Assembly (NCBI GenBank): GCA_903928565.1
Contig: CAIYRH010000018.1
Coordinates: 10,693-74,692, forward strand
DNA from: Candidatus Staskawiczbacteria bacterium
GTDB taxonomy: Bacteria > Patescibacteriota > Minisyncoccia > Minisyncoccales > Staskawiczbacteraceae
DNA length: 64,000 nucleotides
Direction of reading: 5' to 3'
Shown: piece after piece, positions 21,361 through 59,842 of the stretch
How positions within the stretch are numbered: the stretch's first letter is position 1
How the letters are laid out: each line of letters begins with the position of its first letter
Made by a program: the position numbers and the translations under genes
Notes under the pieces: model-generated
The model's database searches: none
What the model saw: the letters and a program-made list of their open reading frames with translations, nothing else
What the model was told of the DNA's origin: nothing

Positions 21361-22071
21361 TTACGCAGGCGGGATAACGGAGGAAACAACGGAACGGGAA
21401 CGCAGGTAGTCACTAGCATAGCCGGGGCTGTCCCAGTAGACAACGACCTCGCCACGGTCGACGACGAAGTACACGCCCGGCACGTAGCCACTGGAGCTGC
21501 GCGAGCCCGTACACAAGGTGGCATTTTTGACGTCCAAAAAATGACGGGTCGTCAGAAAATACCCAAGTTCAGGGAGCAGGCGCTCCAAAAGCGTGGCGCC
21601 CTTATGGCTTTCCGTCTTCAGCACGTTGGCCGACTTATTGGCATTTTCCTCGTCTGCCTCGACTGTCCGACGAAAACCGACAACGTACGAGCCGTCGCGG
21701 TTTGGGTCGCGGTCGTTGGTGGACACGTCTTTGTCGAGGTCATCAATATCGGTGCCGACCTTCAAACCAAACGGCTTCAGCACCTCGCGGAGCGTGGCAA
21801 CCACCTTATTGCAGGTGACGCCCTTAACCGCAGGCACAAGCCAGAGATTCGGGTTTTCCGCGACGCCGAGCTTTTTACTGACCTCGGCATACTCAGCAGA
21901 CATACCGAGCGCCGCATAGGTTATTTGCCAGTTAATATCGGGCACATTGCCGAATACAAACTGTTGCAGCACCTCGGCGAAAGCCTCTGGCTCCCGCTTT
22001 CCGTCGAGCACCAGCTTGTTAGCACTGGCTGCTAGTTTCCATAGACGTTCAAACACATTGTCATTGCTCAT
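21361..22071 (-). CDS. Hypothetical protein on a high-GC (~58%) island
   Basis: Start at MSNDNV with AAGGAAA RBS; strong GC contrast to flanks; terminator-like hairpin at 21305-21345. Confidence 0.5.
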   Translation of the reverse strand: MSNDNVFERLWKLAASANKLVLDGKREPEAFAEVLQQFVFGNVPDINWQITYAALGMSAEYAEVSKKLGVAENPNLWLVPAVKGVTCNKVVATLREVLKPFGLKVGTDIDDLDKDVSTNDRDPNRDGSYVVGFRRTVEADEENANKSANVLKTESHKGATLLERLLPELGYFLTTRHFLDVKNATLCTGSRSSSGYVPGVYFVVDRGEVVVYWDSPGYASDYLRSRSVVSSVIPPA

Positions 22072-22207
22072 GACAGTTTCCTTTCTTATAAGCACGATGA
22101 AGCAATTGCCCAGTTTGGTAGCACCAAACCAGTAAAACAACTACTATTGTCAACGAGCCTACTACCGTCTTATTACCACAAAAAAACAACGCTGTCAAGC
22201 ATTATTT

Positions 22208-27169: not shown

Positions 27170-27769
27170 CTATATTCTTGCAATAGCAATGAAAACTTCG
27201 TTTATGAAGCGCTGAGTCCGCCCTTCGTTTGCCGACTTTGACTTCATTGCTTTAATTAAGCGAGTTGCAACCTTCGCTAGCTTGATGCGGTTTTCGATCG
27301 CATATTCCAACTTAAGTAAATCCCTTCGGTATATTTCACGAATTTTCCGAGAATCATCCTCCACGTCCATAGAAATAGACACCGTTTCCGACATGGGCAG
27401 ACAAGTCAAAGTGGCACCAAATCTTTCTCCAACAATGGGATGCTCGCCATTAACCCACTGATATTCGCCATAGCGCGTTGGGCGCCTGCCGGAAGGAATG
27501 CGTGCATGCGTATAATGCACAGACACATTAATAAGCTTCATGCAGGTAGGACCCGCATCGAAAAGCGTATTCTCGGGGCAATGGCTGCTACCAGTATCGA
27601 GAATACACTTTGCCCAATCCTTATGGTCATAACTTGCCTCTAGTATATTCCCGTCAAGATGCTTAATCTTCAAGCCCCTTCTTTCCAGCGACTCTTTTCC
27701 TGCGCTTAGGATTCCTAGTGGGTTTTCAAGCCCGGGCACCACTAAATACATCAATTTTATCGTTTTCAT
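27170..27769 (-). CDS. Hypothetical protein on a high-GC island; paralog of the gene at 50606-51268
   Basis: Shared TCLPMSETVS/TCLPIDETVS and RTQRFINEV..IARI/RAQRFIIEL..IARS; own terminator at ~27125-27165. Confidence 0.5.
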   Translation of the reverse strand: MKTIKLMYLVVPGLENPLGILSAGKESLERRGLKIKHLDGNILEASYDHKDWAKCILDTGSSHCPENTLFDAGPTCMKLINVSVHYTHARIPSGRRPTRYGEYQWVNGEHPIVGERFGATLTCLPMSETVSISMDVEDDSRKIREIYRRDLLKLEYAIENRIKLAKVATRLIKAMKSKSANEGRTQRFINEVFIAIARI

Positions 27770-27934
27770 ACAGGTATTTTTCTGTAAATGATCAATCAGT
27801 GTTCCGCGGCACACTGAAAAGCCGTTAGATATAATCTATATCTTTTCTAAATTTTTGTCAAACAAAAAATCGCCCTACTTACGGACGATTTTTAAATACG
27901 ATTTTTTATTTTTCTAAAAAACGGTTTTTACTAG

Positions 27935-40436: not shown

Positions 40437-40460
40437 TCAGGTTATCACGTGATAACCTGA
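40437..40460. promoter_or_regulatory. Perfect 24-bp palindrome TCAGGTTATCACGTGATAACCTGA upstream of HTH gene
   Basis: Read directly. Confidence 0.65.
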
Positions 40461-40480: not shown

Positions 40481-40900
40481 TTAGAGGTTTTTACTTAAAT
40501 AGTACCAATCCACCCCATAATAATATTTTGGAAGAACTGCATCTTTTTTATAACCCATTTTCTTATAAAAATGTATGGTTTTGGGCCACGCAGATGAGGT
40601 TTTTACAACCGATTTAACACAATTTTTTTTGATCTTTGCCCAAGCCTCAACGTGACTAAATAACTGGGTACCAACACCGCTCCCCCGCAAACCATCCTTC
40701 ACAAGCAAAGACCGAATTTCTGCAATTCCGCCCCTAATTTCAACTTGAGCATATGCGATAATTTCTTTGCCCGAATATGAGGCAAAATAAAATGTTTTTC
40801 TAGAAGGTAAGAAGTTAAACTTTTTATCATTTATTGCCCATTGTTTGTTCCCAAAACTTTCAGTCGCCGTTTTTTTAACTTCTTTAATTTGAACATTCAT
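40481..40900 (-). CDS. GNAT-family N-acetyltransferase
   Basis: Acetyl-CoA motif RGSGVGTQL; start taken at MNVQIK, since upstream in-frame codons are a translation of the palindrome. Confidence 0.65.
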   Translation of the reverse strand: MNVQIKEVKKTATESFGNKQWAINDKKFNFLPSRKTFYFASYSGKEIIAYAQVEIRGGIAEIRSLLVKDGLRGSGVGTQLFSHVEAWAKIKKNCVKSVVKTSSAWPKTIHFYKKMGYKKDAVLPKYYYGVDWYYLSKNL

Positions 40901-40908
40901 ATTTATTT

Positions 40909-40932
40909 TCAGGTTATCACGTGATAACCTGA
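40909..40932. promoter_or_regulatory. Perfect 24-bp palindrome TCAGGTTATCACGTGATAACCTGA immediately upstream of GNAT gene
   Basis: Read directly. Confidence 0.65.
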
Positions 40933-40957
40933 GCATTTATGTCTTATTGTGTCGAAA

Positions 40958-48761: not shown

Positions 48762-49442
48762 CTAAATAATAAATTTTCCTTCGGCTTCGTCTCTTAAAAT
48801 TTTACCTTGTTCTAAGGTAATTACTCTTTTCCCTAATTTATTTATAACTTCTCTGTCGTGAGTGGCTAAAATAATTGTTTTTCCGGCTTGATTAATTTTT
48901 CTTAAAAGCGCAATGACTTCGTATGTGTTGTAAGGGTCTAAATTGCCGGTTGGTTCGTCGGCAATAATTATGTCGGGCTGGTTTACAAGGGCTCGGGCAA
49001 TGGCAAGCCTTTGCTGTTCGCCACCGGAAAGTTGATGGGGGAAATTATTAACTTTATTTTCTAAACCAATAACTTCTAACACTTTGGGAACTTCCCTTTC
49101 TATTTCTTCATTATCTTTGCCCTCTACCTGCATAATGTAAGCCACATTTTCATAGACGGTTTTTTTAGGCAATAATTTATAATCTTGGTGAATGACGCCA
49201 ATTTTTCTTCTTATTTCTTGAATTTTTAAAGAGTCGGCCTCGCTTAAATTTGTACTTTCAAAAAAAACTTCACCTGAAGATGGCTTTTCTAACCCTAAAA
49301 TTAAATGAATTAGAGTAGTTTTGCCAGAACCGGACTTGCCCACAATTGATACAAATTCTCCTTTTTTTACATCAAATGAAACGTCTTGCAAAACTAGAGT
49401 ATCTGGTGGGTAAATTTTTTCTACGTTTTTAAATTTTATCAT
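48762..49442 (-). CDS. ftsE: Cell-division ATP-binding protein FtsE
   Basis: Walker [13 protein letters not shown] signature LSGGEQQR. Confidence 0.85.
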
Positions 49443-50521
49443 ATTTTATTTCAGCTTCTATAAATTTTTCTAAGTCGCCGTCTAAAACTCCTTCGGCATC
49501 GCTTGTTTCATAAAGCGTGCGCAAATCTTTTACCATTTTATAAGGGTGCAAAACATAAGACCTAATTTGATTCCCAAACCGCACTGAAATGTTTTCACCT
49601 TTTATTTCTTTAATTTCTTTAACGTGCTGTTCTTCGCGCAACTGATATAATTTTGCCACCAAAATTTTCATTGCCTTATCTTTATTTTTTCCTTGCAGCC
49701 TTTCTTTTTGCGAAGCGACTACAATGCCAGTTGGTATGTGCGTAATTCTAATGGCCGATTCGGTTTTATTTACATATTGGCCACCAGGGCCAGAAGCTTT
49801 AAATGTGTCTATTTTTAAGTCGTCTGGCCTAATTTCTAATTCAATTTCGTTATCTTTAATTTCCGGCAATATATTTACAAGCGCAAAAGAAGTGTGGCGA
49901 AGTTTTTGCGAATTAAATGGCGAAAGTCTTACCAACCTGTGTACGCCTGCTTCTTTTTTTAAAAAACCGTAAGCATAGTTTCCTTTTATTTCTATTATAA
50001 CAGATTTTGTGCCAATTCTTCCTTCGGGGCCACCGCCTTCGCCAAGCGCTTGGTGCAAAATTGCAGTTTTATAACCTTTTTTCTCACAATAGCGTTCGTA
50101 CATTCGTAAAAGCATTGTTGACCAATCTTGCGAATCTTGCCCACCGGCCCCAGAATATATTTCTAAAATTGCATTGCTTTTGTCGTATTTGCCTGACAAA
50201 TAAGTCTTAAATTCTTGCTTTTCTATCTTTACATTCAAATTTTCCAAAGAAAATTTGTCCTGAGCGGAGTCGAAGGATTGCAACACCTTATAATCGGCAA
50301 TATCATTTTTTATTTCTTCCAATGCTGATATTTCATTTTTTATTTCTGAGATTTCTTGTTGAACTTCCGTTGCATGTTCGTTGTCGTTCCAGAAATTTGG
50401 CAGTAATGATTCTTCTTCTAACTCTTTTAATTTCTTTTCTTTTCCGGCTACATCAAAGACGGTCTCCCAAATTCTGGAGCCTTGTTTCTAACTCTTCAAT
50501 TTGTGGAGTTGCATCTACCAT
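49429..50521 (-). CDS. prfB: Peptide chain release factor 2 with programmed +1 frameshift
   Basis: ATG 50519-50521, 22 codons MVDATPQIEELETRLQNLGDRL then CTT TGA T shifty site (rc of 50453-50459), continuing in +1 frame into the 297-aa ORF; GGQ-type RF2 body. Confidence 0.85.
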
Positions 50522-50567
50522 ATTGTTTTTATTTTATCATAATAATTGAAACAAAAAAAGACCGCAA
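50313..50567. repeat. Direct repeat copy 1 (~255 bp, prfB promoter plus first ~75 codons), ~92% identical to 51604-51858
   Basis: Aligned by eye. Confidence 0.7.
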
Positions 50568-50605
50568 GGCGAACCTTACGGAGTGCGTCGCTGAAAAACA
50601 GCGAC

Positions 50606-51268
50606 CTAAGACCTGGCAATGGAGAGCATGAGTTCTATGATGAACCGCTGAGCGCGCCCATAATTGAAAGTTTTTGCCTTGATAGCTTTTTCTAGGCGAC
50701 GAGCAGCACGCGTGACTTTGAGGTTGTGCTCAAGTTTATGCATCTCGCCCATAAAGAAACGACACCAAGCTAGACTCATAAACCTGGATAAACCACAGGG
50801 CATCTCCGCATTTAGCGACACTGTTTCGTCAATTGGCAAGCATGTCAATTTTGCGCTGAAAAAATTCATCGTCTTGAAGTAATCAGCACTGCCCACCTCA
50901 ATATCGCTATTCTCTCTGGGTATTTCATCTCCACTTATGAGAATTTGCCTGTTAGCCCAATCATAACAATGATATCCAACGCGCATGTTAGAGGGCAAAA
51001 CGGCATGATCGTAAGTGACCGCGATGCGCGAGATATAAAGACGTTCGTCGGTGGGCGTCCAATAAGAATGGATTACGGTGCCAGACGACCCCACGTCTTC
51101 AATTGCTTTTGTCCAGTTTTTTTCTTCCATCGACACAACAAGAGCGTCTTTAAGCCTGGTGCATCGCACATCTGGCCGGCCCGACCTGTTATACTCTTCC
51201 GCAGTAAAAGCACTAAATTGATCGCTGAGCGTAATAGCCTTGTAAGTGAAGCTCAATGTTTTTTTCAT
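50606..51268 (-). CDS. Hypothetical protein on a high-GC island; paralog of 27170-27769
   Basis: GGAGGA RBS before MKKTLSF; terminator hairpin 50553-50580; GC ~50% versus ~35% flanks. Confidence 0.5.
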   Translation of the reverse strand: MKKTLSFTYKAITLSDQFSAFTAEEYNRSGRPDVRCTRLKDALVVSMEEKNWTKAIEDVGSSGTVIHSYWTPTDERLYISRIAVTYDHAVLPSNMRVGYHCYDWANRQILISGDEIPRENSDIEVGSADYFKTMNFFSAKLTCLPIDETVSLNAEMPCGLSRFMSLAWCRFFMGEMHKLEHNLKVTRAARRLEKAIKAKTFNYGRAQRFIIELMLSIARS

Positions 51269-51394
51269 AGTACATTTCCTCCATTGTTTGGATGATGTAA
51301 AGAGCATCTGTGTTTAGATAAGGCACACCGAAAAGCCTCCGATGTTATAGCTTATAACACGAATTGTTTTATGTCAACAAAAAACGCTATTGCC

Positions 51395-51418
51395 TCAGGT
51401 TACCCTACGGTAACCTGA
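51395..51418. promoter_or_regulatory. Variant palindrome TCAGGTTACCCTACGGTAACCTGA followed by TTGACA promoter element of the 233-aa gene
   Basis: Same 8-bp outer arms as the consensus 24-mer, different centre. Confidence 0.5.
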
Positions 51419-51529
51419 GCCGAACTATTCCACTTTTTCGTGGAATGGCTGTGCCCCACCACCTTAATTTATTAATTTTTCATATAGGACAATTCTATAG
51501 AATTGTCCTATTGCGTTTTGTCGCACTTA

Positions 51530-51812
51530 TTATGCTACTTCGTTTTGATAACAACTTTCGCAATAAACTAATTCCGGACGGTCGGGAGAATAAGAAGTTT
51601 TGATTTCTTCCAATGCTGATATTTCATTTTTTATTTCTGAAATTTCTTGTTGGACTTCGGTAGCATGTTCGTTATCATTCCAAAAGTTAGGCAACACAGA
51701 TTCTTCTTCTAATTCTTTTAATTTCTTTTCTTTGCCAACTACATCAAAGACGGTCTCCCAAATTCTGGAGCCTTACTTCTAACTCTTCAATTTGCGGAGT
51801 TATATCTACCAT
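51530..51812 (-). pseudogene. Chimeric relic: duplicated prfB 5' end (start, frameshift site, ~55 +1-frame codons) fused in-frame to the last 23 codons of a Cys-rich-family gene (KTSYSPDRPELVYCESCYQNEVA)
   Basis: Start 51810-51812; stops TAA TAA at 51527-51532; followed by relic family intergenic palindromes (51420-51530). Confidence 0.6.
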
Positions 51813-51858
51813 ATTGTTTTTATTTTATCATAATAATTGAAACAAAAAAAGACCGCAA
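51604..51858. repeat. Direct repeat copy 2 of prfB 5' region
   Basis: See 50313-50567. Confidence 0.7.
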
Positions 51859-51883
51859 TAACTTTCGCTACTACGGATGTTTA

Positions 51884-52309
51884 CTATCCGGCCATTATGC
51901 CAGTCATAAAATTTTCTACCTCCAAAGCGATTTCTAGGCTCGTCAGACCGTCTTTCAGAGTCAGCACTAACGGATCTACCGTTTTTTCCATTGCTTCGAA
52001 TGCAAAACTATCGACACCAAAGATGACAATAGGCAAACATGGAATCTCCTCGCGCAATCTATGGTAAAGCGCTATGCCCGTTTCGCAACCACCCGCAACC
52101 AGATGTTCCCTAAACACTCCCCCGTATGGCAAAAAGTTAGAAGTGACTAACAGCTCTGACCGTTGGTCTTCTGGCTTATCAAATTGTTCCAAAACCGCCG
52201 AAGCATAGTCACAAACCACAACTTTATGCCCAGCTTTTTGCAATCTTGCAATGAGTATTTCATTAAAAAATCTACTATCTGTAGCGAATGCAATTCTGAA
52301 CGTTTTCAT
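51884..52309 (-). CDS. Hypothetical protein with degenerate CheY-like receiver fold (phospho-acceptor Asp not evident); moderately GC-rich
   Basis: AAGAAGGGAA RBS; pattern MKTFRIAFATDS...LLVTSNFLPYGG...IPCLPIVIFG resembles a receiver-domain scaffold. Confidence 0.3.
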   Translation of the reverse strand: MKTFRIAFATDSRFFNEILIARLQKAGHKVVVCDYASAVLEQFDKPEDQRSELLVTSNFLPYGGVFREHLVAGGCETGIALYHRLREEIPCLPIVIFGVDSFAFEAMEKTVDPLVLTLKDGLTSLEIALEVENFMTGIMAG

Positions 52310-52410
52310 GACGTTTGATTCCCTTCTTGTTGTGAAGTTGCTACGATTGATTAAGATCAATTATAATACTACCCGAATTATTCTATCTGTCAACAAAAAA
52401 CGCTATTGCC

Positions 52411-52434
52411 TCAGGTTATCACGTGATAACCTGA
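52411..52434. promoter_or_regulatory. Perfect 24-bp palindrome TCAGGTTATCACGTGATAACCTGA, 8 nt upstream of TTGACA-N16-TAGTAT promoter of the CheY-like gene
   Basis: Read directly; abuts the stop codon of array member 1. Confidence 0.65.
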
Positions 52435-52435
52435 G

Positions 52436-54013
52436 CTAGGATATTTCGGTTTGATAGCAGGCCTCGCAGTAAACTATTTCGGGGCGGTCTGGGGCGTAGG
52501 AAGTTTTGATTTCTTTGGCGCATTTGGCACATTGGCGGTTCCACAGTTTAAATGGAGTGCGCATAGACAATCTTTTGCTGTGACGGCACATAAAACAATT
52601 AACGGGTTGTGGCAAACCCATTTCATTATAAAAATCTTGCTCGCGATCTATAATTTTAAAATAATTACCGCACTGCTGACATTTAAAAACATTCTTTTCA
52701 TCGCCGGCGTATTCTACCTTAGTTTTCTCTCTCCAAAGAAACCCCTTTTGCGCTGCTGTTTCTGGCGATAAAGGGAAATAGTCTTGGGCAAGCGTTTCGT
52801 TGTAGGCAAAGGGCGATAATTCTGCCGGAAAAAATTGGCCGTACTCGCCCGTTTTTTTCATATGTTCAATAATTTTATCTCTTAATGCAAAATACTCTTC
52901 TTTAGAATATTGTTTGTTAAATATACAATGTTTTTTCTTGCGCAAACCTACGCAACCAAACAAATCAGACGAATTGTAACAATAATAAGAATATTGAACA
53001 TCGTTGGAATACCAAACACGCTTGCTGTAAGAAATGTTCGTGCCCAATATGCTCATTGAGTCATTTATTAATTCACCATAGCCACTGCCAAAACAATCGT
53101 AAGCATCTTTAATTTTGAGCGATTCTTGAACCCATTTTAAATTTTCGCCATCGTTAATGCCAAAACAATTTTTACAATTTTTAGAATTATTTATATTTTC
53201 GCCAAAACAATCTACTGCATTTTTGAATGTGTGTAATTGACGTGGCTTTGAATTTACAAATTTTATGGCTTCATCTTGTGAAATGCTTTGTATCTTCTCA
53301 AAATATTCTTTTTTAGTATATGGTTTATTAAAAATGTGGAATTTTTTACTACGTAAACCCACACAAGCAAAACAATTTGAACAATCGCGGCAATCGTATA
53401 AATATGATGATTCTCTGCATTCAATTGCAAACCGGCTAAACCGAACATTATAACATTTTTGGCTGTCTATTAATTCGTAACATTTTTCGCATGGCCCACC
53501 AACCCAAAAACAATCCGCAGAATCCTTAAGATCGTTTGACTGAGAAGTGTACAGAACATTCTCGTCGTAGTCTGAGACAAAAGTCATATAACAATTTTTA
53601 CAACTTAAAAGCGAATGACAATAGTTGCAATTTGACGAATTAGTGTTGGCCACATGAGGAAATGGCACCGCCTGAATAAGTTGGGCAAATTGCTCAAAAA
53701 ATGGAACAGAAAAATTGAAATCTTTTCCATAACTCATAACATCCCAATTGTCGGACCACCAATAATCTTGGTCGTAAACTACAACGTTGGCTTGAGGCGG
53801 GAAAATTGATATTAATTCCTCAGAGTGCCCTGGCGCCTGGCACTTTCTTCTAAAAAGATTGTGCTCGTTGCGCCACATAAACCTTCTACCAATTCTGCAT
53901 TCTGGACAAAATGTTGGAGCGGGCACTTTCATTTTTTCGTAGAACGCAAAATCATCAGGCTCTATTACAAAGTCTTTTTTGCAGTTTTGACAATTTTTTG
54001 TTTGACTATCCAT
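52436..54013 (-). CDS. Cys-rich double-zinc-ribbon protein, array member 1 (525 aa from MDSQTK)
   Basis: Conserved N-terminus MDSQTKxCQNCKxxFxIEPDDFAFYEKMKVPAPTFCPECR, internal CxxCxxCxGLRxKxYxIFNKxY(T/S)KEEY signature twice, C-terminus C..C..APDRPEIVYCEACYQTE. Confidence 0.7.
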   Translation of the reverse strand: MDSQTKNCQNCKKDFVIEPDDFAFYEKMKVPAPTFCPECRIGRRFMWRNEHNLFRRKCQAPGHSEELISIFPPQANVVVYDQDYWWSDNWDVMSYGKDFNFSVPFFEQFAQLIQAVPFPHVANTNSSNCNYCHSLLSCKNCYMTFVSDYDENVLYTSQSNDLKDSADCFWVGGPCEKCYELIDSQKCYNVRFSRFAIECRESSYLYDCRDCSNCFACVGLRSKKFHIFNKPYTKKEYFEKIQSISQDEAIKFVNSKPRQLHTFKNAVDCFGENINNSKNCKNCFGINDGENLKWVQESLKIKDAYDCFGSGYGELINDSMSILGTNISYSKRVWYSNDVQYSYYCYNSSDLFGCVGLRKKKHCIFNKQYSKEEYFALRDKIIEHMKKTGEYGQFFPAELSPFAYNETLAQDYFPLSPETAAQKGFLWREKTKVEYAGDEKNVFKCQQCGNYFKIIDREQDFYNEMGLPQPVNCFMCRHSKRLSMRTPFKLWNRQCAKCAKEIKTSYAPDRPEIVYCEACYQTEIS

Positions 54014-54087
54014 AATTTTATTATAGTATGTTTTTTCACGTGGCGTGAAAAACATACTACTGTCACGTGTACTGTCACGTGTATTGT

Positions 54088-54110
54088 CAGGTTGTCGCAT
54101 GATAACCTGG
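54088..54110. promoter_or_regulatory. Variant palindrome CAGGTTGTCGCATGATAACCTGG upstream of member 1
   Basis: Followed on coding strand by ACACGTGACAGT x2 and the stem-loop GTATGTTTTTCACGCCACGTGAAAAAACATAC. Confidence 0.55.
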
Positions 54111-54218
54111 TATTGGCTATTCCACTTTTTAGTGGAATGGCCGTGCCCCACCACTTTAATTTATATTTCTCACATACAACTATTCCATGGAATTGTTTAA
54201 TGGTGGGATTAGCAATGT

Positions 54219-55886
54219 CTAGGCGACTTCATTTTGATAGCAAACCTCGCAGTAAACTATTTCTGGGCGGTTGGGGGCGTAGCTGGTTTCAAATTCATTG
54301 ATGCAACCTGGTTTCATGCATTTTCTGTGCCAAAGTTTGGAAGGCCCGCGAAGCTCAAATCTTTTTTTGAGTCTACAAAAAAAACATTTTACAGGTATAG
54401 GAATTTTCCATTTACGATAAAAAGCCAACTCGTCAGGTACTATTTTATAATTTCTTTTGCAAACGTCACACTCTAATATTTCATTTAAAATTGAATCATC
54501 AACATTATTTATATTATCGGGGATATTTTTTAACGTAGTTTTACCGAGGGTTTTTTGAATATTTTCTTGCCAATTTAGCTCTTTGCTTAAAGCTTCTTCT
54601 TTTGTTAAAGGAAAATCTATCATCGCCATAGATTCGTTATAAGCAAACGGTGAATACTGCATTGGGAAAAACTCGCCCCACTCTCTTCCCTTTTTCATGT
54701 GTTCAATAATTTTTTCTTTTAAGGCAAAATATTCTTCTTTTGTGTATTGTTTGTTAAAAATTGAATATTCGCCATGTTTTAAAGCAACGCTGCCAAAACA
54801 ATTATTTGAAGATTGGCAAAAATCCGAATATGCCACATCCATGCATTTCCAAGCATGAATACAGTACAATGCCCTATTAGAATTATCTGGCGTTATGCTT
54901 TCATAGCATTATGAAAGTTCACCGCCAGAACACAAGTCGTAACTGTCTTTTTGAGTATCACCATTTTCTAAATATTTAGAATCTTCTGACCTGCGACAAT
55001 GAAAAACGTTTTTTGAATTTTTACTGTTAATTATATTATTCCCCGTGCAGTTTAGGCAATTTCTGGAAGAAACAAACCGCCTTGGCTGAGTAATTAAAAA
55101 ATTGTTAAATTCAAGTTGAGCCCTTTCGCAACCGTTTCGGCTTCCTATTTTATAAGCATCGATAATTTTTTCGTATTCTTCTTTTGTATATTGTTTATTT
55201 AAAATATAGTATTGCTTGTTGCGTAAATTTACAGACATAAAACAATTTTCACATCCAACACATTCAACGCAATAAGCGCAATTCATCAGACTGGAAGAGC
55301 CATAAACATTTCTGCATCCAAAACATTTGTCGCTATACATTACCTCATACAAACCTTCGCCCGTGCTAAAAATTCCCATTGAATCAACGGTGTCTTTTGT
55401 TTCGGCGCAATAACACGTGTACATACAATTTTCAACTTTCCATGAAACCATTGCCATATAACAATTTTTTCCCAAAGCGAAATTTTGGGTATATTCACAA
55501 TTTTCGCTTCCAATATTATTATCGTTGACTAAAGCAAGCGTGGGAACTTTCAATCTAAATTCCCTAAATTGATCAAAAAACGGTCTGTTAAAATCAAAAT
55601 CTTGTGCATATTGTTTGGGGTCCCATGAGTCTCCCCACCAACATTTATTACAATAAATGACTTGTGGGCTTTCTGGAGAATAAATTGAAATTATATTTCT
55701 TTTACATAAATCGCAATTACGATTATAAAAAACAAAATCGTTTCTCCATGACAATCGTCTCTGTCTTCTGCACTCTGCGCACCAGGTTGGGGGTGGGACT
55801 TTCATTTTTTCGTAAAACGCAAAATCATCGGGCTCAATTACGAACTCGCTGTTACAGTTTTGACAAACTTTTGTTTGACTATCCAT
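54219..55886 (-). pseudogene. Cys-rich array member 2, interrupted by a single in-frame TAA (54906-54908) lying within a small hairpin; otherwise a continuous ~555-codon reading frame
   Basis: Track ORFs 54909-55940 and 54219-54869 are in the same frame; N-half has MDSQTK start, C-half has the family C-terminus. Confidence 0.6.
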
Positions 55887-55948
55887 AATTTTATTATAGT
55901 ATGTTTTTTCACGTGGCGTGAAAAAACATACTACTGTCACGTGTACTG

Positions 55949-55972
55949 TCAGGTTGTCACGTGATAACCTGA
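55949..55972. promoter_or_regulatory. Palindrome TCAGGTTGTCACGTGATAACCTGA upstream of member 2
   Basis: One mismatch from the perfect 24-mer. Confidence 0.6.
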
Positions 55973-55978
55973 TGAATT

Positions 55979-57682
55979 TTAAACAACTTCTTGCTGGTAA
56001 CAGCCTTCACAATAAACTATTTCGGGACGATTTGGTGCATAGGAAGTTTGGATTGCAACATTGCATTTTGCGCAGTTTCTAGGCCACAGTTTTGGCGGAT
56101 TGATACGTGCCAAACGTTGCATGTGCCGACAATCTGAACAAAAATGAGGAACTGGGAATTCGAAACGGCGTAAAAGTGCAAGTTCGGCTGTTGTTATTTT
56201 AAAAGCTTTTCCACACAATTCGCAACCCAAAACTTCTTTTAATATTGAATCTTCCACATTTTTTATATTGTCGGAGATTTTATTGGCAGGTAGTGTAATA
56301 ACGTGATTACTTATTGCGGGGTCGCGCCACTTCCAGCCATTTTTTAAAACCTCTTCTTTTGAAAGTGGATAATACTGAATTGCTTGAGATTCGTTATATG
56401 CGAAAGGGCCTAAGTCATAAGGTAAAAAATCACCATAACGCCAAATTCTGCCAACTGAATCAATGTAGGGGTTTTTATTCATGTCTTCTATTATTTGCGC
56501 TCGCAAAGCTGTGTATTCTTCTGCCGAATATTGTTTGTTTAAAATTCTATATCGTTTCTTTTTTTGATTTATACAACCAAAAGAATATTGGCACGAAACA
56601 TTATACATTCCATATTCCACCTCCATAGTACCCTGATGCCATGCACCCAAAGTAAACCTAACCATGTCGGCCCCCTCGCCGACAGTAATTGAGTCTACAA
56701 CACGTTGAACGCCATTGCCCCATTCAGTGAGATCATAGATATCTTTAGCTGGAGGTATTGTTATAAATTGGCAGTATTTAGCATCTTCCAACTCGCGAGC
56801 CTGAAAACAATTGAGTGCATTCTTTGCACGATAAACATAATCTCCAGAAACATTTATACACTGTGCATCTTTGTGCATATATTTGTTTGGATATTGCAGC
56901 CAAAAATCATCAACAATTTTTTTGATCTTTAACAATTCGCTGTTACTGGCAAGATTATATTCTTTAATTTTTTCTAAATATTCTTCTTTGGTATATGGTT
57001 TATTAAAAATATAATATTTTTTATTGCGCAAATTAATGCAACCGAAACAATTGTCACAACCGATACAACTTTTTAAAAAATAAGATTCTGTGCACTTTGT
57101 GCAACTTTCGGAAAAAAATAACTTATAACCTTTGCTGTCTATGGCTTGATACATTAATTCTGACTCGCCCACCATATAGCAATCCATAGAATCTTTAACG
57201 CTTACCACAATGGTTGAATAATGAACATTTTCGCAAAAATCAGAATTAAAAACTAAGTAACAGTTTTTGGCACTTCCTGCATGATTAACATAATCACTAT
57301 TTATAAGTGTTGCGTGGTCATTTATTAGAGCCATATGCGGAGTTTTTTTCTGCAATTCAAGCATTTGCTCAAAAAATGGCACCGCTGGGTTGTATTCTAA
57401 AAAATGTTCGCCGTCGTCCCATTTGTCAGACCACCAACAGGCGGAACAATACATAATTAGTTTTGATTCCGGAGAAAAAATTGTCACAACATTTTCGCCA
57501 CATAAGTCACATTTTCTTTTATACAGAACTCTTTCGCTTCTACACATAATTCTACGCTGAAATCTGCAGGAAGGGCAAAATGTTGGAGCGGGAACTTTCA
57601 TTTTTTCGTAGAACGCAAAATCGTCGGGCTCAATTACGAACTCGTTTTTGCAGTTCTGACAAACTTTTGTTTGACTATCCAT
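55979..57682 (-). CDS. Cys-rich double-zinc-ribbon protein, array member 3 (567 aa)
   Basis: Same architecture; ends PNRPEIVYCEGCYQQEVV. Confidence 0.7.
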   Translation of the reverse strand: MDSQTKVCQNCKNEFVIEPDDFAFYEKMKVPAPTFCPSCRFQRRIMCRSERVLYKRKCDLCGENVVTIFSPESKLIMYCSACWWSDKWDDGEHFLEYNPAVPFFEQMLELQKKTPHMALINDHATLINSDYVNHAGSAKNCYLVFNSDFCENVHYSTIVVSVKDSMDCYMVGESELMYQAIDSKGYKLFFSESCTKCTESYFLKSCIGCDNCFGCINLRNKKYYIFNKPYTKEEYLEKIKEYNLASNSELLKIKKIVDDFWLQYPNKYMHKDAQCINVSGDYVYRAKNALNCFQARELEDAKYCQFITIPPAKDIYDLTEWGNGVQRVVDSITVGEGADMVRFTLGAWHQGTMEVEYGMYNVSCQYSFGCINQKKKRYRILNKQYSAEEYTALRAQIIEDMNKNPYIDSVGRIWRYGDFLPYDLGPFAYNESQAIQYYPLSKEEVLKNGWKWRDPAISNHVITLPANKISDNIKNVEDSILKEVLGCELCGKAFKITTAELALLRRFEFPVPHFCSDCRHMQRLARINPPKLWPRNCAKCNVAIQTSYAPNRPEIVYCEGCYQQEVV

Positions 57683-57744
57683 AATTTTATTTTAGTATGT
57701 TTTTTCACGTGGCGTGAAAAAATATACTACAGTCACGTGTACTG

Positions 57745-57768
57745 TCAGGTTATCACGTGATAACCTGG
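57745..57768. promoter_or_regulatory. Palindrome TCAGGTTATCACGTGATAACCTGG upstream of member 3
   Basis: Read directly. Confidence 0.6.
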
Positions 57769-57878
57769 AATTTGGTATTCCACTTTTTCGTGGAATGGCA
57801 GTACCCCTTCACTTTAATTTATTAAATTTTCACATTGAACAATTCTATGGAATTGTTTAATGATGGGATTGGCAATAT

Positions 57879-59534
57879 CTAGGCGACCTCGTTCTGGTAA
57901 CAGGTCTCGCAATAAACTATTTCCGGGCGGTCTGGGGCGTAGGAAGTTTCAAATTCGTTTTGACAACCTGCCTTCATGCATTTTCTGTGCCAAAGTTTAA
58001 AAGGCAGTCTCATTTCTCGGCGGGCACCTAGACGGCATTGAGGACACTCGCGTGGTAACGGCAATGAAAATCGTTTAAGATATTTTAATTCTTCTATAAC
58101 AATTTTATAGTTTCGTTTACAATATATGCATGAAAAGACTTCTTTAATAAAATCATCGTCGACATCTTTAATATTATCTGGAATATTTTCTGTTAAAACT
58201 GTCTCCTGGCTTGTGATTAAAGGCACATCCTCTTGCCAATGATAACCTTGTCTTAATGCTTCCTCTTTTGTAAGTGGATAATAATCGTTTGCGGCAGTCT
58301 CGTTATAACCAAAAGTGCTAAAATCTTTATCCATAAATAAAGCAAGCTCTTTTTTTTCTTCAATTTGTTTTTTTATGGTTTCATATTCGGCTTTTGAATA
58401 TTGTTTATTTAAAATACAATATTCTTTTCGCTTTAATCCAATGCAAGCAATGCAATTATTACATGAAATTAGGCTATCACACCAATCACAGAAGCTGGAA
58501 TTAAAAATATTGAAAGAATTTTTTATCATAGAACCTCCCTTAATCACTGCCGAACTGAAAATATTTTCCGTTGGTTGGGTGCCTACTGCATAGCTCCATT
58601 GAGCACTATTTGAATGGAGAATGCTGGCAACATTGCGCACATCTTGATTATCCGCACCATCAAAACACCAAAAATTTCTATCACAATTTTCGAGATAATT
58701 GCCAACACAGCCGTTAGATTTTAAGAAAAAAGCAAAGCGGTGGATAGCAACCTTCTTCAGCTCTTTATATTCGGAAAGCGAATTAAGATGAGTAACATAA
58801 CTGCCATTAAGAATTTTTTTACATTCTTTGAGATACTCTTCGCGCCCAACTTCTTTATTTCTAACGCAATAAGATTTATTCCGCAAATTATAACAAAAAA
58901 GACAGTTACTACAACCACGCAAGTCATAGCTAAAATAGCAATCTGAACAATCAGAAGAATCTTGAATATACGCAGAGTGATAAGACTTTATCACGTCTAC
59001 TGAATTGAGAATTAATTCGCTATCGGTTATTTTATGACAATCCATGCAATCTTTGTTGCCAACCATCCACATCGAATATAGGATATTCTCTGAATTCGAA
59101 ATTAAAAAAGAAAAATAGCAATTTTTAGAATCACGCACGTTGCTACCGTAAGTACAATTTGTAGAATTTAAAATAATGACAGCCTCCCGAGGAACTCTTT
59201 TTTGTAATTCAATAACCTGGTCAACAATTGAGCGACCAGAATCATAATTATTTCCATAAGATAGTCCATCCCATTGATCACTCCACCAACAGTCGTGACA
59301 AAAAATCGTATACGGTGATTTAGAATGATAAAGTGACATTGTTTTCTGTCCACAATGAGCACATTTACCCCAATATACCACTTTTTCGTTACGTAATACT
59401 TCTATTTGTGCCATGCCGCACTCATAACAGAATTCTAAAGGATTCACTTTCATTTTTTCATAAAACTCAAAATCATCGGGCTCAATTATGAAGTCCTTCT
59501 TGCAATTTTGACAAACTTTTGTTTGACTATCCAT
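57879..59534 (-). CDS. Cys-rich double-zinc-ribbon protein, array member 4 (551 aa)
   Basis: Same architecture; ends PDRPEIVYCETCYQNEVA. Confidence 0.7.
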   Translation of the reverse strand: MDSQTKVCQNCKKDFIIEPDDFEFYEKMKVNPLEFCYECGMAQIEVLRNEKVVYWGKCAHCGQKTMSLYHSKSPYTIFCHDCWWSDQWDGLSYGNNYDSGRSIVDQVIELQKRVPREAVIILNSTNCTYGSNVRDSKNCYFSFLISNSENILYSMWMVGNKDCMDCHKITDSELILNSVDVIKSYHSAYIQDSSDCSDCYFSYDLRGCSNCLFCYNLRNKSYCVRNKEVGREEYLKECKKILNGSYVTHLNSLSEYKELKKVAIHRFAFFLKSNGCVGNYLENCDRNFWCFDGADNQDVRNVASILHSNSAQWSYAVGTQPTENIFSSAVIKGGSMIKNSFNIFNSSFCDWCDSLISCNNCIACIGLKRKEYCILNKQYSKAEYETIKKQIEEKKELALFMDKDFSTFGYNETAANDYYPLTKEEALRQGYHWQEDVPLITSQETVLTENIPDNIKDVDDDFIKEVFSCIYCKRNYKIVIEELKYLKRFSLPLPRECPQCRLGARREMRLPFKLWHRKCMKAGCQNEFETSYAPDRPEIVYCETCYQNEVA

Positions 59535-59616
59535 AATTTTATTTTAGTATGTTTTTTCACGTGGCGTGAAAAAATACACTACTGTCACGTGTAATATCAC
59601 GTGTACTTTCAGGGGG

Positions 59617-59790
59617 TTATTTTTTCCAATCTATGACGCTGATTGTTCGCCCTTTTAAGGCAACAACCACCTTTTGGTGCTCTTTCCAGCCAAGTTTTTG
59701 CACAATTTCAATTGGAAGAGTAATGCCTAGGGTTTTTCCCTTGCCTGTTTTAGTTAATTTCCTAATATTTTTTTCACTTAGATTTCTCAT
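59617..59790 (-). CDS. AbrB/MazE/SpoVT-type swapped-hairpin DNA-binding protein (57 aa), missing from the ORF track
   Basis: MRNLSEKNIRKLTKTGKGKTLGITLPIEIVQKLGWKEHQKVVVALKGRTISVIDWKK; variant palindrome directly upstream. Confidence 0.5.
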   Translation of the reverse strand: MRNLSEKNIRKLTKTGKGKTLGITLPIEIVQKLGWKEHQKVVVALKGRTISVIDWKK

Positions 59791-59802
59791 GTTAAGTGTA
59801 CT

Positions 59803-59828
59803 GTCAAGTTAACCACGGTTAACCTGAC
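59803..59828. promoter_or_regulatory. Variant palindrome GTCAAGTTAACCACGGTTAACCTGAC upstream of AbrB-like gene
   Basis: Inverted arms GTTAACC/GGTTAAC; preceded by the actgtca context seen at other copies. Confidence 0.45.
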
Positions 59829-59842
59829 AATTAATTATTTTT

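Follow-up and report, generated by a model that had tools for sequence, protein, structure and literature searches.

Single-crossover integration of circular DNA that carries part of a gene leaves, in Escherichia coli, a duplication of 109-950 bp that brackets the insert (PMC3240628). Homology-facilitated illegitimate recombination (HFIR) is described for natural transformation (de Vries and Wackernagel 2002; Prudhomme et al. 2002; Meier and Wackernagel 2003; all as cited in PMC5361080 and PMC3240628), and it has been proposed for the orphan-gene arrays, preceded by displaced 3' gene ends, of type VI secretion system (T6SS) and Rhs loci (PMC5361080). The arrays of orphan modules in Rhs, contact-dependent inhibition (CDI) and T6SS effector-immunity systems formed by displacement, through successive imports from other strains and not through duplication (PMC5361080). 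The programmed +1 frameshift site by which prfB, the essential gene of release factor 2 (RF2), regulates itself has been reviewed across bacteria (PMC12421855). Here we describe a locus in 64,000 nucleotides of DNA from a Candidatus Staskawiczbacteria bacterium (contig CAIYRH010000018.1, positions 10,693 to 74,692; this stretch is the window, and all positions without a contig label refer to it), in which the 5' end of prfB occurs twice, each time downstream of a different small cargo gene. All features described at the prfB locus lie on the minus strand.

We consider it about 70% probable that the locus arose when the haplotype ends of two diverged lineages were stacked by one illegitimate joint combined with homologous exchange. 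It is a fresh instance of a known and ordinary kind of rearrangement, resembling the scar of an insertion-duplication or of HFIR. As in Campbell-type integration, direct repeats bracket an insert, one gene copy is complete and the other truncated, and the repeat length (261 nt) falls within the range of 109-950 bp. Unlike in that system, the circle would have been a chromosomal fragment of a related lineage closed by an illegitimate joint and not a plasmid, the repeats are 9% diverged, and a circle is suggested by one ambiguous contig (L083) only. The likeness to HFIR would lie in one end anchored by homology, the other joined at a short microhomology (putatively AAGAAAT, 7 nt), and foreign genes caught beside a conserved gene. 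Classical HFIR, however, mostly costs the recipient some of its DNA; at this locus the foreign or resident end contributed a further prfB 5' end and so created a repeat. With the Rhs, CDI and T6SS orphan arrays the locus shares a stack of small, unrelated downstream genes and a remnant of the displaced upstream gene's 3' end that precedes the downstream gene. It differs from them in that the C-terminus of the upstream gene family, which is rich in Cys, is conserved and not a variable toxin tip, and in that the displaced end is fused to prfB instead of being free.

This bacterium belongs to the Patescibacteria, an uncultured group in which recombination and uptake of DNA are for the most part inferred. 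Under the reading preferred here the locus would preserve, as a clean natural footprint, an exchange of DNA between diverged lineages of this group, and since both alleles are retained side by side the event can be dated from one genome.

The prfB 5' end is present twice

A repeat search and blastn revealed an ungapped direct repeat of 261 nt at 50307-50567 (R1) and 51598-51858 (R2). The two copies differ by 23 mismatches (91.2% identity, E = 4e-103) and are the only ones in the window. The initial annotation, made from the letters alone, had placed this duplication at 50313-50567 and 51604-51858; it was recovered there with slightly wider limits, and the codons downstream of the shift site, estimated at about 55, number 49. 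Each copy consists of a terminator 3' arm with its T-run within 46 nt of promoter and leader, an ATG (50521 in R1, 51812 in R2), a 22-codon ORF0 ending in CTT TGA, and 49 codons in the +1 frame. The promoter and leader are identical between the copies (46/46).

A short ORF0 that ends in CUU UGA behind a Shine-Dalgarno-like element is the hallmark of the prfB +1 frameshift, and both copies display it: the site reads …TTGGGAGACCGT CTT TGA after 22 codons and a GGGAG element precedes it. CTT TGA, GGGAG and the 22-codon ORF0 thus agree with the described prfB sites. The differences are that copy 2 leads into a 71-codon chimeric tail and that the base after the TGA (50453-50455 and 51744-51746) is T in both window copies (CTT TGA T) and C in the three relatives read (L087:10045-10048, L088:10045-10048 and L094:8045-8048).

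R1 belongs to the working gene. This intact prfB (49429..50521) is made up of ORF0 at 50521..50456 (MVDATPQIEELETRLQNLGDRL), the TGA at 50455-50453, and the +1 frame from 50454 to the stop at 49429; it encodes a complete RF2 (Pfam PCRF 5e-40, RF-1 8e-39), and ftsE and ftsX come after it as they do in relatives. R2 lies 1.3 kb upstream of the real prfB. Its ORF0 (MVDITPQIEELEVRLQNLGDRL), CTT TGA (51749-51744) and 49 +1-frame codons run in frame into 22 codons of a Cys-rich family, TSYSPDRPELVYCESCYQNEVA-stop, ending at 51530, and the whole is an intact chimeric open reading frame (ORF) of 93 codons (22 + 71), in agreement with the fusion initially proposed. Its Pfam result is a weak N-terminal PCRF match, in place of the full PCRF and RF-1 pair. 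Because copy 2 ends in Cys-family codons and not in a full RF2, it is not a prfB gene.

The two copies are probably diverged alleles with a recent junction

The 23 differences between R1 and R2 comprise 17 synonymous and 6 non-synonymous changes. Third codon positions hold 16 of them, and 4 of 70 residues are changed. By the Nei-Gojobori method dS was 0.61 and dN 0.036 (dN/dS 0.059). Neutral drift of one copy during half of the divergence should have produced about 8 residue changes (P(≤4) = 0.007). Relative-rate comparisons with L087 and L088 as outgroups assigned 8 derived changes to each copy, and on the branch of copy 2 seven of the 8 were at third positions, six of these seven being synonymous (P = 0.0026). 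A redundant, truncated copy left by a simple tandem duplication is expected to evolve neutrally, which neither the dN/dS ratio nor the equal branches bear out, and the locus is accordingly not read as a simple duplication within the genome followed by decay.

The coding parts of R1 and R2 are 89.3% identical, against 83-85% to other species, so that the two lineages would have been substantially diverged. Taken together, the substitution pattern and the symmetric branches argue that the copies are working alleles of different lineages that were joined recently. Judged from the substitutions, copy 2 appears to have spent nearly all of its separate history within a working prfB. With a dN of no more than 0.036 and a dS/2 of about 0.3, the joining would be at most about one eighth as old as the split of the alleles.

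The part of the chimera derived from the Cys-rich family has a different history. Its DNA is 77-78% identical to every family member in the window and is more diverged than the prfB part (P = 0.006), which indicates that its parent, here called gene Z, is not present in this genome. The initial annotation had called this tail the exact C-terminal ribbon of the array family; at 77-78% DNA identity to any member it is family-typical and no closer.

The joint and the perfect block

The novel joint lies at 51598..51609 (AAGAAAT-C-AAAA). In a three-way comparison prfB reads GGAAGAAATAAAAAATGAT, the chimeric relic GGAAGAAATCAAAACTTCT and the 572-aa gene of the array CAAAGAAATCAAAACTTCC. The microhomology between prfB and a 3' end of the 572-aa type is AAGAAAT, 7 nt long, or 12 nt if one mismatch is allowed. 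If gene Z resembled the 572-aa member, the crossover lies within this stretch and both parents encode E-I-K there in the same frame, which would explain why the fusion is in frame.

Divergence along the repeat is uneven. The first 55 nt (46 non-coding nt and ATGGTAGAT) hold no difference, against 23/206 in the rest (P = 0.006); the comparison of the non-coding flanks gave 0/46 here against 11/66 in the other flank (P = 0.003). The promoter region of prfB is highly divergent between species, though identical in R1 and R2. This perfect block could mark a homologous crossover at this place or a tract of later gene conversion, or it could reflect a subsequent replacement of prfB, from its ATG on, with a diverged allele. 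A perfect repeat of 55 nt should make the locus prone to deletion or amplification.

Two tandem units with unrelated cargo genes

The duplication extends to the layout around it. Two tandem units are present, and in each the 3' end of a Cys gene is followed by a hairpin, a 23-nt module that is identical between the units, a cargo gene, a terminator and the 5' end of prfB. The locus had initially been described as a single insert bracketed by the repeats; the repeats do flank a relatively GC-rich gene, but the whole unit is repeated, and a second, unrelated cargo gene of 141 aa farther upstream had been missed. Content and divergence that are the same throughout both units, as a simple tandem duplication should leave, were not found: the cargos are unrelated, and a spacer of 110 nt occurs in one unit only.

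The unit next to the intact prfB includes the 1030-nt segment between the repeats, with a family-type spacer, a hairpin, a 220-aa gene and a terminator-like hairpin. It begins with the 3' end of a Cys-rich family gene that is lost or foreign (the relic, 51530..51597, TSYSPDRPELVYCESCYQNEVA-stop); this tail is typical of the family and retains only the second CxxC of the terminal CxxC-x17-CxxC ribbon. In the intact 572-aa and 567-aa members the ribbon region matches Pfam zf_Tbcl_2 and TIGR04272 below the cut-offs. The intergenic spacer that follows (51421..51529) contains two perfect palindromes (51511-51484 and 51446-51427) and aligns collinearly with those that follow the 551-aa and 216-aa members of the array; the region is 77% identical over 177 nt to 57776-57949 and 76.5% identical to 54117-54275. 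Next come hairpin 3 (51419-51394, CTCAGGTTACC-GTAG-GGTAACCTGAG) and the 23-nt module (51394-51372, GGCAATAGCGTTTTTTGTTGACA), together at 51372..51419; the module holds a T-run and a -35-like TTGACA. Family-type palindromes had been recognised here before, as a relic of such elements. They are intact: the spacer's three palindromes are perfect (fold dG -66.8 kcal/mol, z = -10.5). The AGCGTTTT of the module can also pair with AAAACGC just past the relic stop (51372-51394 and 51510-51523, minus strand), a predicted 7-bp stem that encloses the three-hairpin spacer.

Cargo gene B (50606..51268) encodes 220 aa, has a GGAGG ribosome-binding site and a GC content of 45.9%. Downstream of it lies a terminator-like hairpin (50562..50581, CCGTAAGG-TTCG-CCTTGCGG and a T-run) with the repeat boundary within its loop, so that the 3' arm and T-run sit inside R1. 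A terminator had been ascribed to this gene as its own; the hairpin is there (50581-50562), and half of it is the gene's own, the 3' arm being repeat.

The upstream unit begins with the 3' end of the intact 572-aa array member (52436..52515, …CAKEIKTSYAPDRPEIVYCEACYQTEIS), the homologue of the relic, to which it is 78% identical. A second hairpin 3 and module (52388..52435; hairpin 52435-52410, module 52410-52388, 23/23 identical) follow, with a promoter-like TTGACA-16-TAGTAT in this segment. The module occurs exactly twice in the window, once upstream of each cargo gene, and array-internal spacers continue differently after hairpin 3 than cargo-side spacers do. Cargo gene A (51884..52309) encodes 141 aa at 43.2% GC, and its terminator-like hairpin (51853..51876, CCGTAGTAGC-GAAA-GTTATTGCGG and a T-run) has its 3' arm and T-run as the start of R2. 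The two terminators have identical 3' arms and different 5' arms. A repeat between 50667-50697 and 51909-51939 (D8, 74%) was taken as chance, being out of register with the tandem units.

Unrelated cargo genes within homologous flanks (the hairpin and module on one side, the 3' arm of the terminator on the other) point to two alleles of one variable slot. The two proteins are mutually unrelated. Against a gene mean of 37.1% GC, cargo B has z = 2.0 (z = 2.6 at third codon positions, GC3) and cargo A z = 1.4. Among 5.8e9 proteins the 220-aa protein found only itself; among 1.84e9 representatives it has 9 distant relatives (27-39% identity) with a conserved C-terminal motif, the nearest at a different locus of a related genome, and it belongs to a very rare family of about 200 aa. 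The 141-aa protein likewise found only itself among 5.8 billion proteins. Searches of both proteins with Pfam, NCBIfam, PADLOC, PHROGs and PDB profiles were empty or far below the cut-off. Single-sequence AlphaFold models were poor (pLDDT 35 and 53), and that of cargo A, of low confidence, has an alternating beta-alpha pattern; a designation of this protein as a response regulator was dropped, having rested on that pattern and on a CpdR match of E = 0.02, far below the cut-off.

A variable island between tRNA-Thr and prfB

The nearest genomes are Staskawiczbacteria-like Patescibacteria whose RF2 is 81-85% identical. They share a backbone of divIC, tRNA-Gly(ccc), tRNA-Thr(cgt), a variable region, prfB, ftsE, ftsX and tRNA-Gln. 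The interval from tRNA-Thr to prfB is a variable island in this group, at 50568-59842 in the window, L094:7911-7981, L087:8087-10000 and L088:6218-10000. The number of Cys-rich genes in it is 0 in L094, 1 in L087 and 2 in L088 and L089, all without cargo, and the window has 4-5 such genes, the relic and two cargo genes. The window array is composed of 551-aa, 567-aa and 572-aa members and a member split by TAA (343 + 216 aa), besides the relic and the cargo genes; the single Cys gene of L087 is the ortholog of the 567-aa member (81%). No integrase was seen in the island.

In L087 a hairpin of the same type (TCAGGTTACC-ATAT-GGTAACCTGA) and a T-run come after the stop of the Cys gene, and the prfB promoter follows immediately. 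In L088 and L089 the last of two Cys genes leads directly through a hairpin and T-run to the prfB promoter. The last array member thus adjoins prfB in these relatives, as the initial annotation had supposed for the ancestor, and the comparison with genomes lacking the insert, which it had put forward as a check, has borne this out. Because the relatives are free of cargo, both cargo genes fill a slot that is empty in them. At this hotspot between tRNA-Thr and prfB the Cys-rich zinc-ribbon family expands from none to 5 copies, and the genes captured there have few or no relatives.

A scan of viral sequences for close relatives of the locus gave 0 matches, exact look-ups of the 297-aa RF2 ORF, P0002 and FtsE proteins found none on record, and comparison of 50.0-52.7 kb with known RNA elements gave sub-threshold chance matches only.

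Proposed origin of the locus

The comparisons above show how the locus is built and where its segments meet, that a Cys gene ancestrally adjoined prfB, that the substitutions bear the mark of selection, and that the joining is recent. In the proposed mechanism, one lineage would have carried a haplotype of Cys gene, hairpin, 23-nt module, 141-aa gene, terminator and prfB (allele b2), and the other a haplotype of Cys gene Z, spacer, hairpin, module, 220-aa gene, terminator and prfB (allele b1). The full-length gene Z is predicted to end in …EIKTSYSPDRPELVYCESCYQNEVA. DNA of one lineage would have entered the other. A single illegitimate joint would then have linked codon 70-71 of prfB-b2 (…E-E-I-K) to the 3' end of gene Z (probably …K-E-I-K-T-S-Y) at AAGAAAT(N)AAAA, and the other end of the exchange would have been resolved by ordinary homologous recombination. 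The expected outcome is the two haplotype ends in tandem, with an intact prfB, a 261-nt second 5' copy fused in frame to 22 codons of gene Z, and the 220-aa gene trapped between the repeats.

HFIR could have had its anchor either on the prfB/ftsE side or on the array side, or a fragment could have closed into a circle at the joint and then integrated by a single crossover through prfB 5' homology. These three routes would give the same product and are indistinguishable from this sequence. The direction of transfer and the exact route are what we infer.

The chimeric ORF is probably a by-product and not functional, as its 71 RF2 residues are an incomplete RF2 domain and it has only the second CxxC. 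The prfB gene remains whole, with its own promoter. Copy 2, with the same promoter, should be transcribed and would yield a 22-residue peptide or, after the +1 shift, a 93-residue chimera. Hairpin 3 lies 9 nt from its T-run and was not called as a terminator, so that transcription from the copied prfB promoter may run on into the 220-aa gene. A second intact prfB frameshift leader will mislead annotation pipelines and surveys of frameshift sites.

Several points weigh against an exchange between two lineages. No donor, direction of transfer or homologous crossover point was observed, and neither parental haplotype was found. An RF2 scan of genome contigs found no close strain among species-representative genomes, where the best match reached 66%. 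In the protein collection the nearest RF2 has 85% identity, and scans of metagenome contigs with the 23-nt module and with a 23-mer around the shift site gave 0 matches. The microhomology of 7 nt presumes that gene Z resembled the 572-aa member; it shrinks to 3-4 nt if gene Z was like the 567-aa member. The perfect 55-nt block would call for an extra step, a conversion or a crossover there. A low dN/dS could also result if the chimeric ORF itself were under selection, and the cargo genes exceed the mean GC by a modest amount (z = 2.0 and 1.4).

Alternative explanations

The source is a metagenome-assembled contig, and two diverged alleles side by side are what a chimera of two co-occurring strains might look like. 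The initial annotation had named assembly collapse or expansion at the repeat as the outcome that would overturn it. However, contigs of five other assemblies, with two contig-naming schemes, are 100% identical to the window (L081, 52507..50513; L082, 51640..50001; L085, 51950..50752; L086, 51810..50752; L084, 52418..51874), and jointly they cross all four junctions, from cargo A to R2, from R2 to the Cys tail, from cargo B to R1 and from R1 to the unique part of prfB. The parents share at most 12 nt at the joint, far below any k used, and a homology of 7-12 nt is too short for a chimera in a de Bruijn (k-mer) graph. As R1 and R2 differ at 23 sites, an assembler cannot have made either one from the other. 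Collapse or expansion of the repeat is thus highly improbable, and the strain chimera was rejected on the short joint homology and the concordance of independent contigs. An old, microhomology-mediated tandem duplication within the genome, with one cargo later replaced and both prfB 5' copies kept by selection on a functional chimera or leader, would account for the two-unit layout with homologous flanks, for an intact chimeric ORF with conserved promoter, ATG and shift site, and for a joint that matches this genome's own 572-aa gene over 16 nt. Yet it needs at least two extra events, the cargo swap and the gain of the 110-nt spacer, and the segments are unequally diverged, by 0% (55 nt), 11% (rest of the repeat) and 22% (Cys part). 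The relic to be kept by selection is half a zinc ribbon with 71 RF2 residues and no complete RF2 domain, and a dS of 0.61 implies very long retention of a deletion-prone repeat with a 55-nt perfect block. We regard this course of events as unlikely.

A different possibility is that a unit of 1.29 kb (repeat, Cys tail, spacer and 220-aa gene) is still active, forming a circle or tandem through the 55-nt block and re-integrating through prfB 5' homology, in which case the duplication would be the attachment scar of a cassette that moves repeatedly. It is suggested by contig L083 from another sample (ENA ERZ27313080 k141_386935, window 51724..50414), whose 1311 nt equal the 1291-nt period plus a terminal overlap of 20 nt, and which has copy-2-type bases at 9/9 diagnostic positions after the 220-aa gene, as a crossover in the 55-nt block predicts; relatives of the 220-aa protein, moreover, occupy other loci. 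The length of L083 was also considered as that of a k = 141 unitig between identical repeats (1030 + 2x140, about 1310), which its asymmetric ends (127 and 154 nt) fit less well than a cut closed loop. On the other side, 20 nt is k-1 for the smallest default k of MEGAHIT, and the 55-nt block collapses at k = 21. The L083 sample has low coverage, the neighbouring contig L084 ends 16 nt short of R2, no recombinase lies in or beside the unit, and the arrangement is linear in all other samples. Low coverage and the collapse at k = 21 make an isolated graph loop without any circle a plausible artefact; L083 represents either the unit as a circle or in tandem, or such a loop. That a live unit of this kind exists is accordingly doubtful. 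Equally doubtful is its extension, in which the 1291 nt are a recombinase-free, self-excising or amplifying cassette that moves from lineage to lineage as a circle, integrates through the prfB 5' end and has its cargo expression coupled to the RF2 level; if this were true, each integration would bring an additional live, RF2-sensing promoter with its frameshift leader to a position just upstream of the cargo.

Two further classes of element were rejected. A transposon, insertion sequence or integron cassette does not agree with 50.2-52.6 kb, which contains no transposase or integrase, no terminal inverted repeats and no attC-like site; the inverted repeats at the locus are local hairpins only, and the 261-nt repeat is gene sequence and not a target-site duplication. 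A polymorphic toxin or orphan-immunity array was set aside since the C-terminus of the family is conserved and internal members have no small partner gene. PADLOC and Pfam gave no toxin or defence matches.

Further observations

The split array member (54219-55940, minus strand) is one reading frame interrupted by a single TAA at 54911-54909, which yields the 343-aa and 216-aa ORFs; it is probably inactivated by this nonsense codon. In L088 a reverse transcriptase (RVT_1), a serine recombinase and an N6/N4 methyltransferase (L088:13238-17214) are inserted downstream of ftsX and a GIY-YIG gene; the window lacks this mobile island. Two more GC-outlier ORFs, both on the minus strand and without a Pfam match, lie at 21361-22140 (54.5% GC, z = 4.0) and 27170-27814 (45.1%, z = 1.9); they may be foreign genes, or may not be real genes.

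The perfect palindrome CAGGTTAYC-N4-GRTAACCTG occurs 7 times in the window, with 0 expected by chance (40438-40459, 40910-40931, 51396-51417, 52412-52433, 54088-54109, 55950-55971 and 57746-57767). Two of these copies, far from the array, bracket a GNAT acetyltransferase gene (40481..40936), and the palindrome seems to be a genome-wide hairpin that delimits small accessory genes.

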